Assembly: GCF_001677475.2 (NCBI RefSeq)
Contig: NZ_CP015229.1
Reading direction: 5' to 3' (one strand)
From: Escherichia coli
GTDB lineage: Bacteria; Pseudomonadota; Gammaproteobacteria; Enterobacterales; Enterobacteriaceae
Length of the DNA: 64,000 bases
Below the pieces are notes generated by a model that searched no databases, had not been told where the DNA came from, and was given only the letters and a program-made list of their open reading frames with translations. Numbering within the stretch: position 1 is the first letter of the stretch; every line of letters starts with the position of its first letter. Shown here one piece after another: positions 4,544 to 53,120 of this stretch. The position numbers were made by a program, and so were the translations under genes.

Positions 4544-4572
4544 TTAACCATTCCCATACAATTAGTTAACCA

Positions 4573-4605
4573 AAAAGGGGGGATTTTATCTCCCCTTTAA
4601 TTTTT
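4573..4605 (+). terminator. rho-independent terminator after clpX
   Basis: hairpin aaagggggg-atttt-atc-tcccctttaa followed by T-run. Confidence 0.75.
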
Positions 4606-4612
4606 CCTCTAT

Positions 4613-4650
4613 TCTCGGCGTTGAATGTGGGGGAAACATCCCCATATACT
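4613..4650 (+). promoter_or_regulatory. sigma32 heat-shock promoter of lon
   Basis: TCTCGGCGTTGAA (-35) and CCCCATATA (-10) with 14-nt spacer; matches recalled lon heat-shock promoter. Confidence 0.8.
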
Positions 4651-4730
4651 GACGTACATGTTAATAGATGGCGTGAAGCACAGTCGTGTCATCTGATTAC
4701 CTGGCGGAAATTAAACTAAGAGAGAGCTCT

Positions 4731-14713: not shown

Positions 14714-18260
<3,547 letters not shown>

Positions 18261-18372
18261 ATAGCGCAATATTTCATCGTTGGTGCAAAAATGTAACGCA
18301 CTGTGCACTGTCATAGTGCGTTTTCATTTTCAATCTTCTTAACTTCCTGCTCTCTTTCTCGTTTTTCATTTC

Positions 18373-18388
18373 TGGCACACCGCTTGCA
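18373..18388 (+). promoter_or_regulatory. sigma54 (-24/-12) promoter of glnK-amtB
   Basis: TGGCAC-N5-TTGCA exact consensus at 18373-18388, about 50 nt upstream of glnK. Confidence 0.8.
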
Positions 18389-18440
18389 ATACCTTCTTCG
18401 TGTAGCAGAACCATTACCGAATTCTGACCGGAGGGGATCT

Positions 18441-18779
18441 ATGAAGCTGGTGACCGTGATAATCAAACCATTCAAGCTGGAAGACGTTCGTGAAGCGTTA
18501 TCTTCCATTGGTATTCAGGGCCTGACCGTCACCGAAGTGAAAGGTTTCGGGCGTCAGAAAGGACATGCCGAGCTGTACCGGGGGGCGGAATACAGCGTCA
18601 ATTTCCTGCCAAAAGTAAAAATTGATGTGGCGATTGCTGATGACCAACTCGATGAAGTGATCGATATCGTCAGTAAGGCGGCTTACACCGGAAAAATTGG
18701 CGACGGCAAAATCTTCGTCGCTGAATTGCAACGCGTCATTCGTATTCGTACCGGCGAAGCCGACGAAGCGGCGCTGTAA
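18441..18779 (+). CDS. glnK: nitrogen regulatory protein PII-2 (112 aa)
   Basis: ORF 18303..18779; start ATG 18441 with RBS GGAGGGG; MKLVTVIIKPFKLEDVREAL... matches E. coli GlnK. Confidence 0.97.
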   Translation: MKLVTVIIKPFKLEDVREALSSIGIQGLTVTEVKGFGRQKGHAELYRGAEYSVNFLPKVKIDVAIADDQLDEVIDIVSKAAYTGKIGDGKIFVAELQRVIRIRTGEADEAAL

Positions 18780-18808
18780 TCTCTGGCACACAGCAACAGG
18801 AACGAAAA

Positions 18809-20095
18809 ATGAAGATAGCGACGATAAAAACTGGGCTTGCTTCACTGGCGATGCTGCCGGGACTGGTAATGGCTGCACCTGCGGTGGCCGATAAAGCCGA
18901 CAATGCGTTTATGATGATTTGTACTGCGCTGGTGCTGTTTATGACTATTCCGGGGATTGCCCTGTTTTACGGTGGGTTGATTCGCGGCAAAAACGTGCTG
19001 TCGATGCTGACGCAGGTGACGGTGACGTTTGCACTGGTCTGTATTCTCTGGGTGGTTTACGGTTACTCGCTGGCGTTTGGTGAGGGAAACAACTTCTTCG
19101 GCAACATTAACTGGTTGATGCTGAAAAACATCGAACTGACGGCGGTGATGGGCAGCATTTATCAGTATATCCACGTAGCGTTTCAGGGATCGTTTGCCTG
19201 CATTACCGTAGGCTTGATAGTTGGAGCACTGGCGGAACGAATCCGCTTCTCAGCTGTGTTGATTTTCGTGGTTGTATGGCTGACGCTCTCCTACATTCCG
19301 ATTGCGCATATGGTCTGGGGCGGCGGTTTGCTGGCTTCTCACGGTGCACTGGATTTCGCGGGTGGCACGGTGGTGCACATTAACGCCGCAATCGCCGGCC
19401 TGGTGGGCGCGTATCTGATAGGCAAACGCGTGGGCTTCGGCAAAGAGGCGTTTAAACCGCACAACCTGCCGATGGTCTTCACCGGGACTGCCATTCTCTA
19501 TATCGGTTGGTTTGGCTTTAACGCCGGGTCAGCGGGCACGGCGAATGAAATCGCAGCACTGGCATTTGTGAATACTGTGGTCGCAACGGCGGCGGCAATT
19601 CTTGGCTGGATCTTCGGTGAATGGGCGCTGCGTGGTAAGCCTTCACTGCTGGGAGCGTGTTCAGGCGCGATTGCCGGTCTGGTCGGCGTGACGCCAGCGT
19701 GTGGCTACATTGGTGTTGGCGGCGCGTTGATTATCGGCGTGGTAGCTGGTCTGGCGGGCTTGTGGGGCGTTACCATGCTCAAACGCTTGCTGCGGGTGGA
19801 TGATCCCTGCGATGTCTTCGGTGTGCACGGCGTTTGTGGCATTGTCGGCTGTATCATGACCGGGATTTTTGCTGCCAGCTCGCTGGGCGGCGTGGGCTTC
19901 GCTGAAGGTGTGACGATGGGCCATCAGTTGCTGGTACAGCTGGAAAGCATCGCCATTACGATCGTCTGGTCCGGTGTGGTGGCATTTATTGGCTACAAAC
20001 TGGCGGATCTGACGGTTGGTCTGCGTGTGCCGGAAGAACAAGAGCGAGAAGGGCTGGACGTCAACAGCCACGGCGAGAATGCCTATAACGCGTAA
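18809..20095 (+). CDS. amtB: ammonium transporter AmtB (428 aa)
   Basis: signal peptide and multiple TM segments; matches E. coli AmtB; 29 nt downstream of glnK. Confidence 0.97.
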   Translation: MKIATIKTGLASLAMLPGLVMAAPAVADKADNAFMMICTALVLFMTIPGIALFYGGLIRGKNVLSMLTQVTVTFALVCILWVVYGYSLAFGEGNNFFGNINWLMLKNIELTAVMGSIYQYIHVAFQGSFACITVGLIVGALAERIRFSAVLIFVVVWLTLSYIPIAHMVWGGGLLASHGALDFAGGTVVHINAAIAGLVGAYLIGKRVGFGKEAFKPHNLPMVFTGTAILYIGWFGFNAGSAGTANEIAALAFVNTVVATAAAILGWIFGEWALRGKPSLLGACSGAIAGLVGVTPACGYIGVGGALIIGVVAGLAGLWGVTMLKRLLRVDDPCDVFGVHGVCGIVGCIMTGIFAASSLGGVGFAEGVTMGHQLLVQLESIAITIVWSGVVAFIGYKLADLTVGLRVPEEQEREGLDVNSHGENAYNA

Positions 20096-22290: not shown

Positions 22291-22404
22291 GGGGGCTCTG
22301 TTGGTTCTCCCGCAACGCTACTCTGTTTACCAGGTCAGGTCCGGAAGGAAGCAGCCAAGGCAGATGACGCGTGTGCCGGGATGTAGCTGGCAGGGCCCCC
22401 ACCC
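22291..22404 (+). ncRNA. ffs: 4.5S RNA (signal recognition particle RNA), 114 nt
   Basis: sequence GGGGGCTCTGTTGGTTCTCCCGCAACGC...CAGGGCCCCCACCC matches E. coli 4.5S RNA; between atl and ybaA as in K-12. Confidence 0.97.
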
Positions 22405-37933: not shown

Positions 37934-39865
37934 ATGAGTTATCAGGTCTTAGCCCGAAAATGGCGCCCACAAACCTTTGCTGACGTCGTCGGCCAGGAAC
38001 ATGTGCTGACCGCACTGGCGAACGGCTTGTCGTTAGGGCGTATTCATCATGCTTATCTTTTTTCCGGTACCCGTGGCGTCGGAAAAACCTCTATCGCCCG
38101 ACTGCTGGCGAAGGGGCTAAACTGCGAAACCGGCATTACCGCGACGCCGTGCGGCGTGTGCGATAACTGTCGTGAAATCGAGCAGGGGCGCTTTGTCGAT
38201 CTGATTGAAATCGACGCCGCCTCGCGCACTAAAGTTGAAGACACTCGCGACCTGCTGGATAACGTCCAGTACGCTCCGGCGCGTGGTCGTTTCAAAGTTT
38301 ATCTGATCGACGAAGTGCATATGCTGTCGCGCCACAGCTTTAACGCACTGTTAAAAACCCTTGAAGAGCCGCCGGAGCACGTTAAGTTTCTGCTGGCGAC
38401 GACCGATCCGCAGAAATTGCCGGTGACGATTTTGTCGCGCTGTCTGCAATTCCATCTCAAGGCGCTGGATGTCGAGCAAATTCGCCATCAGCTTGAGCAC
38501 ATCCTCAACGAAGAACATATCGCTCATGAGCCGCGGGCGCTGCAATTGCTGGCACGCGCCGCTGAAGGCAGCCTGCGAGATGCCTTAAGTCTGACCGACC
38601 AGGCGATTGCCAGCGGTGACGGCCAGGTTTCAACTCAGGCGGTCAGTGCGATGCTGGGTACGCTTGACGACGATCAGGCGCTGTCGCTGGTTGAAGCGAT
38701 GGTCGAGGCCAACGGCGAGCGCGTAATGGCACTGATTAATGAAGCCGCTGCCCGTGGTATCGAGTGGGAAGCGTTGCTGGTGGAAATGCTCAGCCTGTTG
38801 CATCGTATTGCGATGGTACAACTTTCGCCTGCTGCACTTGGCAACGACATGGCCGCCATCGAGCTGCGGATGCGTGAACTGGCGCGCACCATACCGCCGA
38901 CGGATATTCAGCTTTACTATCAGACGCTGTTGATTGGTCGCAAAGAATTACCGTATGCGCCGGACCGCCGTATGGGCGTTGAGATGACGCTGCTGCGCGC
39001 GCTGGCGTTCCATCCACGTATGCCTCTGCCTGAGCCAGAAGTGCCACGCCAGTCCTTTGCGCCCGTCGCGCCAACGGCAGTAATGACGCCAACCCAGGTG
39101 CCGCCGCAACCGCAATCAGCGCCGCAGCAGGCACCGACTGTACCGCTCCCGGAAACCACCAGCCAGGTGCTGGCGGCGCGCCAGCAGTTGCAGCGCGTGC
39201 AGGGAGCAACCAAAGCAAAAAAGAGTGAACCGGCAGCCGCTACCCGCGCGCGGCCGGTGAATAACGCTGCGCTGGAAAGACTGGCTTCGGTCACAGATCG
39301 CGTTCAGGCGCGTCCGGTGCCATCGGCGCTGGAAAAAGCGCCAGCCAAAAAAGAAGCGTATCGCTGGAAGGCTACCACTCCAGTGATGCAGCAAAAAGAA
39401 GTGGTCGCCACGCCGAAGGCGCTGAAAAAAGCGCTGGAACATGAAAAAACGCCGGAACTGGCGGCGAAGCTGGCGGCAGAAGCCATTGAGCGCGACCCGT
39501 GGGCGGCTCAGGTTAGCCAACTTTCGCTACCAAAACTGGTCGAACAGGTGGCCTTAAATGCCTGGAAAGAGGAGAGCGACAACGCAGTATGTCTGCATTT
39601 GCGCTCCTCTCAGCGGCATTTGAACAACCGCGGTGCACAGCAAAAACTGGCTGAAGCGTTGAGCACGTTAAAAGGTTCAACGGTTGAACTGACTATCGTT
39701 GAAGATGATAATCCCGCGGTGCGTACGCCGCTGGAGTGGCGTCAGGCGATATACGAAGAAAAACTTGCGCAGGCGCGCGAGTCCATTATTGCGGATAATA
39801 ATATTCAGACCCTGCGTCGATTCTTCGATGCGGAGCTGGATGAAGACAGTATCCGCCCCATTTGA
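37934..39865 (+). CDS. dnaX: DNA polymerase III subunits tau (full length, 643 aa) and gamma (by frameshift)
   Basis: MSYQVLARKWRPQTFADVVGQEHVLTAL... Walker A GTRGVGKTS; matches E. coli DnaX. Confidence 0.98.
   Translation: MSYQVLARKWRPQTFADVVGQEHVLTALANGLSLGRIHHAYLFSGTRGVGKTSIARLLAKGLNCETGITATPCGVCDNCREIEQGRFVDLIEIDAASRTKVEDTRDLLDNVQYAPARGRFKVYLIDEVHMLSRHSFNALLKTLEEPPEHVKFLLATTDPQKLPVTILSRCLQFHLKALDVEQIRHQLEHILNEEHIAHEPRALQLLARAAEGSLRDALSLTDQAIASGDGQVSTQAVSAMLGTLDDDQALSLVEAMVEANGERVMALINEAAARGIEWEALLVEMLSLLHRIAMVQLSPAALGNDMAAIELRMRELARTIPPTDIQLYYQTLLIGRKELPYAPDRRMGVEMTLLRALAFHPRMPLPEPEVPRQSFAPVAPTAVMTPTQVPPQPQSAPQQAPTVPLPETTSQVLAARQQLQRVQGATKAKKSEPAAATRARPVNNAALERLASVTDRVQARPVPSALEKAPAKKEAYRWKATTPVMQQKEVVATPKALKKALEHEKTPELAAKLAAEAIERDPWAAQVSQLSLPKLVEQVALNAWKEESDNAVCLHLRSSQRHLNNRGAQQKLAEALSTLKGSTVELTIVEDDNPAVRTPLEWRQAIYEEKLAQARESIIADNNIQTLRRFFDAELDEDSIRPI
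39217..39260 (+). other. dnaX: dnaX programmed -1 ribosomal frameshift site (slippery A AAA AAG plus downstream stem-loop) producing gamma
   Basis: heptamer AAAAAAG at 39217-39223 in frame (GCA AAA AAG); -1 shift reads GAG then TGA giving a 431-aa product; GC-rich stem-loop ccggcagccgc...gcgcgcggccgg follows. Confidence 0.9.
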
Positions 39866-47279: not shown

Positions 47280-47363
47280 GTAGGCCAGATAAGGCGTTCA
47301 CGCCGCATCTGGCATTTGGCTCTCGATGCCTGATGCGACGCTGGCGCGTCTTATCAGGCCTAC
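47280..47363. repeat. REP/BIME cluster (two inverted REP units) between gsk and ybaL
   Basis: GTAGGCCAGATAAGGCGTTCACGCCGCATCTGGCA and GCCTGATGCGACGCTGGCGCGTCTTATCAGGCCTAC. Confidence 0.85.
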
Positions 47364-53036: not shown

Positions 53037-53120
53037 ACACCGTCGCTTAAAGTGACGGCATAATAATAAAAAAATGAAATTCCTCTTTGACGGGCCAATA
53101 GCGATATTGGCCATTTTTTT
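53037..53120 (+). ncRNA. chiX: ChiX (MicM/SroB) Hfq-dependent small RNA, about 84 nt
   Basis: ACACCGTCGCTTAAAGTGACGGCATAATAATAAAAAAATGAAATTCCTCTTTGACGGGCCAATAGCGATATTGGCCATTTTTTT matches recalled ChiX sequence including intrinsic terminator; ybaK-ybaP intergenic as in K-12. Confidence 0.88.

Follow-up and report, generated by a model that had tools for sequence, protein, structure and literature searches.

The spacer between mdlB and glnK in Escherichia coli raises the question of which promoter and which activator drive the glnK-amtB operon, and which bases of this short stretch carry these functions. In this study, we analyzed a DNA stretch of 64,000 nucleotides from E. coli (contig NZ_CP015229.1 of assembly GCF_001677475.2), hereafter called the window. 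An initial annotation, made from the letters of this DNA, had proposed a sigma54 promoter with exact consensus upstream of glnK-amtB, preceded by half-sites compatible with NtrC binding. With a probability of about 0.97, the feature is glnKp, the sigma54/NtrC-dependent promoter of the E. coli glnK-amtB operon. This promoter is already characterised and the result is an annotation, not a discovery; added by the present analysis are the exact coordinates of two NtrC dyads and a comparison across 120 species.

The mdlB stop codon is located at 18258–18260 and is separated by a spacer of 180 bp from glnK (18441–18779, plus strand), which encodes a PII-type nitrogen regulator and for which the ATG at 18441 was taken from the RefSeq annotation of matching E. 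coli records. The ammonium transporter gene amtB (18809–20095, plus strand) is co-transcribed with glnK. Out of 5,426 complete E. coli genomes, 5,423 were matched by a 401-bp query around the promoter, always at mdlB and glnK; the identity was at least 99% in 5,157 genomes. For comparison with K-12 MG1655, the whole mdlB-glnK spacer and its flanks were aligned (203 bp; window position = NC_000913.3 coordinate minus 454157), and one mismatch was found, at 18334 (T here, A in K-12), which lies in the looping spacer described below and outside every identified element. It is thus the same locus as K-12 glnKp with no functional difference, and since the spacer is identical but for this one base, published K-12 data on glnKp apply directly. 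Rfam families were not detected in 18200–18900, which covers spacer and leader. Elsewhere in the window, five matches reached the Rfam gathering score, i.e. sraA (4564–4659, minus strand), the small SRP RNA ffs (22299–22395, plus), the dnaX frameshift element (39198–39262, plus), naRNA4 (47283–47360, plus) and sroB (53037–53120, plus), all of them known E. coli features.

The sigma54 promoter core

The promoter core TGGCAC-N5-TTGCA (TGGCACACCGCTTGCA) is located at 18373–18388 on the plus strand, with GG at 18374–18375 as -25/-24 and GC at 18386–18387 as -13/-12, so that both dinucleotides are exactly 10 bp apart, as the sigma54 class demands. All 11 core positions match the -24/-12 consensus, as the initial annotation had stated; its word "perfect" holds for this 11-position core and not for the extended consensus, as TGGCAC is followed by A instead of G. 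The core is intergenic, has the same orientation as glnK and lies 68 bp before the ATG, implying a leader of about 42 nt. When both strands of the 64-kb window were scanned, this was the only exact match, at a chance expectation of 0.05 (mean of dinucleotide shuffles of the window, 5 of 100 shuffles containing a match). Allowing one mismatch added two sites only, and the resulting total of 3 against 3.5 expected in the window is no excess over chance. At 17932–17953 inside mdlB, a tandem TGGCAC TGGCAC includes a one-mismatch sigma54-like match (TGGCACGCGTGTTGGT) lacking the GC of -12; because one-mismatch sites are no more frequent in the window than expected, this match is probably due to chance. 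TGGCAC also occurs at 18783–18788 in the 29-bp spacer between glnK and amtB, where it has no TTGC at -12 and by consensus is no sigma54 promoter. A scan of 18100–18900 with the sigma70 consensus gave no sigma70-like promoter.

For the comparison between species, 120 glnK loci from species-representative genomes, nearly all of them Enterobacterales, were collected by matching a degenerate nucleotide pattern that encodes the N-terminus of GlnK. In the 300 bp preceding glnK, 114 of the 120 loci have a match to TGGCAY-N5-(T/C)TGCW (chance about 0.005 per locus), mostly 64–71 bp before the ATG and with variable N5 spacer; most core positions are already set by this anchoring pattern. The pattern was unmatched within this distance in Candidatus Pantoea persica (L021), Kluyvera genomosp. 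3 (L116) and two Sutterella genomes assembled from metagenomes (L032, L052). Conservation extends past the core into its 5′ flank (18363–18372): upstream of the -24 element, positions -37 to -28 form a conserved T-rich stretch (TTTTCATTTC), and 104 of 113 regions have A at -31.

Published data on this promoter are extensive. Zhao et al. (2010) listed glnK among 18 known sigma54-dependent genes, with an 18.8-fold fall of expression in an rpoN deletion, and placed the promoter sequence tttcTGGCACACCGCTTGCAATacct between -68 and -51 relative to the ATG; this sequence equals window positions 18369–18394. In the sigma54 ChIP-seq study of Bonocora et al. (2015), peak OS03 has the motif CTGGCACACCGCTTGCA with its centre at 471761 (older K-12 numbering), 42 nt from glnK; after applying the 776-bp offset between the K-12 versions, this centre corresponds to window position 18380 in the middle of the core. 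By gSELEX, Shimada et al. (2021) obtained peaks in the mdlB/glnK spacer with RpoN holoenzyme alone, with NtrC alone and with both together. For NtrC, glnK-amtB was ChIP-seq peak 1 (39.7-fold) in the study of Brown et al. (2014), in which nitrogen run-out induced glnK mRNA; deletion of glnG left this mRNA not readily detectable, and complementation restored it. Schumacher et al. (2013) described glnKp as exclusively dependent on activated NtrC, the specific activity of which was about 400-fold higher under ammonium starvation, and a Salmonella glnKamtB promoter-lacZ fusion rose from 1.1 to 1778 Miller units upon nitrogen limitation. The assignment of a sigma54 promoter to glnK-amtB is therefore supported by the same published sequence, by sigma54 ChIP-seq and gSELEX peaks and by rpoN dependence. 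The rpoN and ntrC mutant tests suggested in the initial annotation can already be found in the literature (18.8-fold fall; glnK mRNA lost without glnG), and the outcomes named there as refuting it, expression independent of rpoN or a transcription start elsewhere, are contradicted by published data.

NtrC dyads and their helical phasing

The region around 18281–18330, where the initial annotation had noticed NtrC-compatible half-sites that it could not delimit, contains GGTGCA (18282–18287), ACGCAC (18296–18301), GTGCAC (18303–18308) and AGTGCG (18315–18320). These half-sites resolve into two 17-bp dyads, which were scored at the 12 core positions of TGCACC-N5-GGTGCA. The promoter-proximal site TGCACTGTCATAGTGCG (18304–18320, centre 18312, about -87) scores 9/12, and the promoter-distal site TGCAAAAATGTAACGCA (18284–18300, centre 18292, about -107) scores 7/12 at the core and 9/14 against the NtrC consensus given in the literature, TGCACCAnnnTGGTGCA. 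The two sites lie upstream of -24 on one face of the helix, with 20 bp between their centres. Both are only moderate matches to the consensus, whereas orthologous proximal dyads score 10–12 of 12. A consensus scan of the window as a single genome sequence with up to three mismatches gave 31 NtrC-like matches against 36 expected; since this is no enrichment, the NtrC sites were judged by their position and by conservation across species.

The dyad search was done in 113 distinct upstream regions anchored on the -24/-12 element. A dyad of at least 9/12 was found in 108 of these orthologous regions, compared with 4% of shuffles, and 97 of 107 regions have their best second site at an offset of exactly 20 bp on the upstream side of the proximal one. 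When eleven Enterobacteriaceae spacers were aligned, conserved islands appeared at both dyads, the promoter and the Shine-Dalgarno sequence, while the rest has diverged; the proximal site is nearly invariant in this alignment, and TGCAAAAnnGnAACGCA of the distal site is conserved across Enterobacteriaceae. From what is established for bacterial enhancer-binding proteins, we infer that the bases contacted by NtrC are the two dyads at 18284–18300 and 18304–18320. Beyond the footprinting work of Atkinson et al. (2002), a literature search brought up no paper that states site positions at glnK. The NtrC ChIP-seq interval of Brown et al. (2014) corresponds to approximately 18360–18440 and thus covers the promoter and not the dyads, an offset which is probably an effect of resolution or looping.

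A third, weak NtrC-like dyad (AGCGCCTGAATAGCGCA, 18252–18268, centre about -139) overlaps the mdlB stop codon and may be an additional weak NtrC site. This candidate is an uncertain lead, since its score of 8/12 is common in shuffles. Several other Enterobacteriaceae genera carry TGA-TGCACCAnnAnCAGGCA, which scores 9/12, right at the mdlB stop (L054, L074, L090, L026, L113 of our locus set).

Between the proximal dyad and the promoter lies a T/C-rich looping spacer of about 50 bp (18321–18372), in which the alignment shows indels and whose length varies between species by roughly one helical turn. Over all regions, the distances from the proximal dyad to the promoter fall into the classes 87, 97–98, 106–109, 117–119, 128–133 and 137–144 bp, and the gaps between these classes are empty. 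The shortest of these arrangements (-87) occurs in Escherichia and Leclercia. The best period of the enhancer-promoter distances was 10.9 bp (R = 0.58), and only 1 of 5000 random sets was equally periodic; each distinct distance was counted once for this calculation, which lessens the effect of relatedness. Steps of about 10.9 bp are what looping-dependent activation predicts, and the glnK spacing is an instance of a known rule. The same "evolutionary fingerprint" of looping sigma54 enhancers, i.e. indels of one helical repeat, was described for Vibrio qrr (Brunwasser-Meirom 2016, PMC4740811), which differs from glnK in gene, clade and activator (LuxO there, NtrC here).

A candidate mdlAB terminator and alternative explanations

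The proximal NtrC site and the bases following it also resemble an intrinsic terminator. A terminator-like match at 18295–18333 (plus strand), a candidate for the terminator of mdlAB, consists of a hairpin (18295–18322) and a T-rich tail. The hairpin has 11 pairs and is built from the right halves of both NtrC sites; its first base lies 35 nt downstream of the mdlB stop, and UUUUCAUUUUCA comes directly after it. As RNA, the 46-nt segment 18290–18335 folds with -16.4 kcal/mol (z = -4.9), and none of 200 shuffles was as stable. In the transcript, the pairing partner of the proximal site's right half would be either the corresponding right half of the distal dyad or the left half of the proximal dyad itself, with the T-run directly thereafter. 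Including the window, mdlB was found upstream of glnK in the same orientation in 110 of 121 regions. The combination of proximal dyad, hairpin and T-run is present in 63 of 108 species, essentially Enterobacteriaceae, and in 57 of these 63 the spacer has no terminator-like site besides the dyad hairpin. Of the other 45 species, which lack this combination, 12 carry a distinct hairpin immediately downstream of the mdlB stop. In supplements of one E. coli 3′-end study, no entry for mdlB or glnK was found, and a literature search for mdlB, glnK and terminator returned nothing relevant.

These features lead to the question whether 18295–18333 could be nothing but the mdlAB terminator, its likeness to NtrC sites being incidental. 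The stable hairpin with its T-run, the co-oriented mdlB upstream and the 57 species with no other terminator-like site in the spacer would all agree with this. However, TGCACY-N5-GGTGCR is kept without a T-run in Yersinia, Serratia, Pantoea and other genera, a terminator needs neither a second site 20 bp upstream nor a helical phase to -24, and published work has located NtrC at the mdlB/glnK spacer in vivo and in vitro. Since NtrC binding and termination are compatible functions, a terminator is unlikely as the exclusive explanation, and we regard it as very improbable.

Even less probable are two explanations concerning the promoter and its activator. That the -24/-12 match is an inert sigma54 site or a chance occurrence, with another promoter driving glnK, could be argued from the many E. 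coli sigma54 sites that are intragenic or inactive (Bonocora et al. 2015) and from the exact matches in 5 of 100 window shuffles, yet this match is intergenic, oriented towards glnK at 68 bp from its ATG and retained in 114 of 120 loci while N5 varies; moreover, there is no sigma70-like promoter in the scanned vicinity, and dependence on rpoN, glnG and nitrogen has been published. A sigma54 enhancer-binding protein other than NtrC as activator is hardly conceivable either: E. coli possesses several such proteins and its dyads are imperfect when compared with the NtrC consensus, but the orthologous dyads reach 10–12 of 12 positions of that very consensus, glnK mRNA is lost upon glnG deletion and restored by complementation, and NtrC itself gives gSELEX and ChIP-seq peaks here. 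On the basis of conservation and published data, all three explanations were rejected in favour of a sigma54 promoter activated by NtrC.

For this NtrC-activated promoter, the conservation of the NtrC site together with the T-run suggests that the site may double as the mdlAB terminator. We propose only tentatively, at somewhat less than even odds, that in Escherichia and most Enterobacteriaceae the proximal NtrC site has this second role as an intrinsic terminator and, together with the CT-rich block described below, forms two layers of insulation. The T-run after the dyad could serve DNA bending instead of termination.

Transcription start, leader and activation of glnKp

Counting from GG as -24 and GC as -12, the transcription start is predicted at 18399–18400 (plus strand). 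This position fits the 42-nt distance to glnK (Bonocora et al. 2015) and a CT block "centred at -4" (Levy et al.), and CGT at +1 to +3 is conserved. The resulting glnK 5′-UTR comprises 18400–18440 (plus strand) with the Shine-Dalgarno sequence GGAGGGG at 18430–18436. Within the 5′-UTR, a block at 18411–18428 (CCATTACCGAATTCTGAC) is almost invariant in Enterobacteriaceae while the remaining leader diverges, and 36 of 111 distinct leaders contain AATTCTGA.

Just upstream of the start, the CT-rich block CCTTCTTC (18392–18399, plus strand) represents the anti-Shine-Dalgarno "insulator" published by Levy et al. (bioRxiv 10.1101/086108), whose base pairing to the ribosome-binding site silences read-through transcripts only. 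It is the same CT block that was mutated in that study, in which the assay used a synthetic ribosome-binding site and a reporter. In the native RNA, pairing of the CT block with the glnK Shine-Dalgarno sequence was present in the fold of 18340–18470 and absent in that of 18385–18470, and neither of these two folds was more stable than shuffles. As this result is not robust, we make no claim for the pairing in the native glnK leader.

Activation of glnKp would proceed as follows. RNA polymerase with sigma54 would bind at 18373–18388 as a closed complex that is unable to initiate alone. Under nitrogen limitation, NtrB would phosphorylate NtrC, and NtrC-P bound to both dyads (18304–18320 and 18284–18300) on one face of the helix would oligomerise, reach the polymerase by looping of the T/C-rich spacer of about 50 bp and open the promoter by ATP hydrolysis. 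Initiation at about 18399–18400 would then yield the glnK-amtB mRNA. The looping and ATPase steps at glnKp are those that we infer from established knowledge of bacterial enhancer-binding proteins.

With glnAp2, the archetypal NtrC/sigma54 promoter, glnKp shares the -24/-12 core, a pair of upstream NtrC dyads on one face of the helix and looping-mediated activation by NtrC-P. The NtrC sites of glnAp2 are centred at -108 and -140, whereas glnKp has its sites nearer the promoter, at about -87 and -107, and spaced by 20 instead of 32 bp; unlike glnAp2, glnKp has no evident overlapping sigma70 promoter or low-affinity "governor" sites. From work of Atkinson and colleagues in 2002, glnKp is said to require more NtrC-P than glnAp2. 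Schumacher et al. (2013) called glnKp a "simpler" promoter whose activity depends on activated NtrC alone.

As a textbook reporter of NtrC activity, glnKp governs the GlnK-AmtB pair of ammonium sensor and transporter. The spacing of its enhancer provides a further natural example of the rule published for Vibrio qrr. If the proximal NtrC site indeed doubles as the mdlAB terminator, glnK-amtB would be insulated twice from read-through, by this terminator and by the published CT-rich anti-Shine-Dalgarno block.
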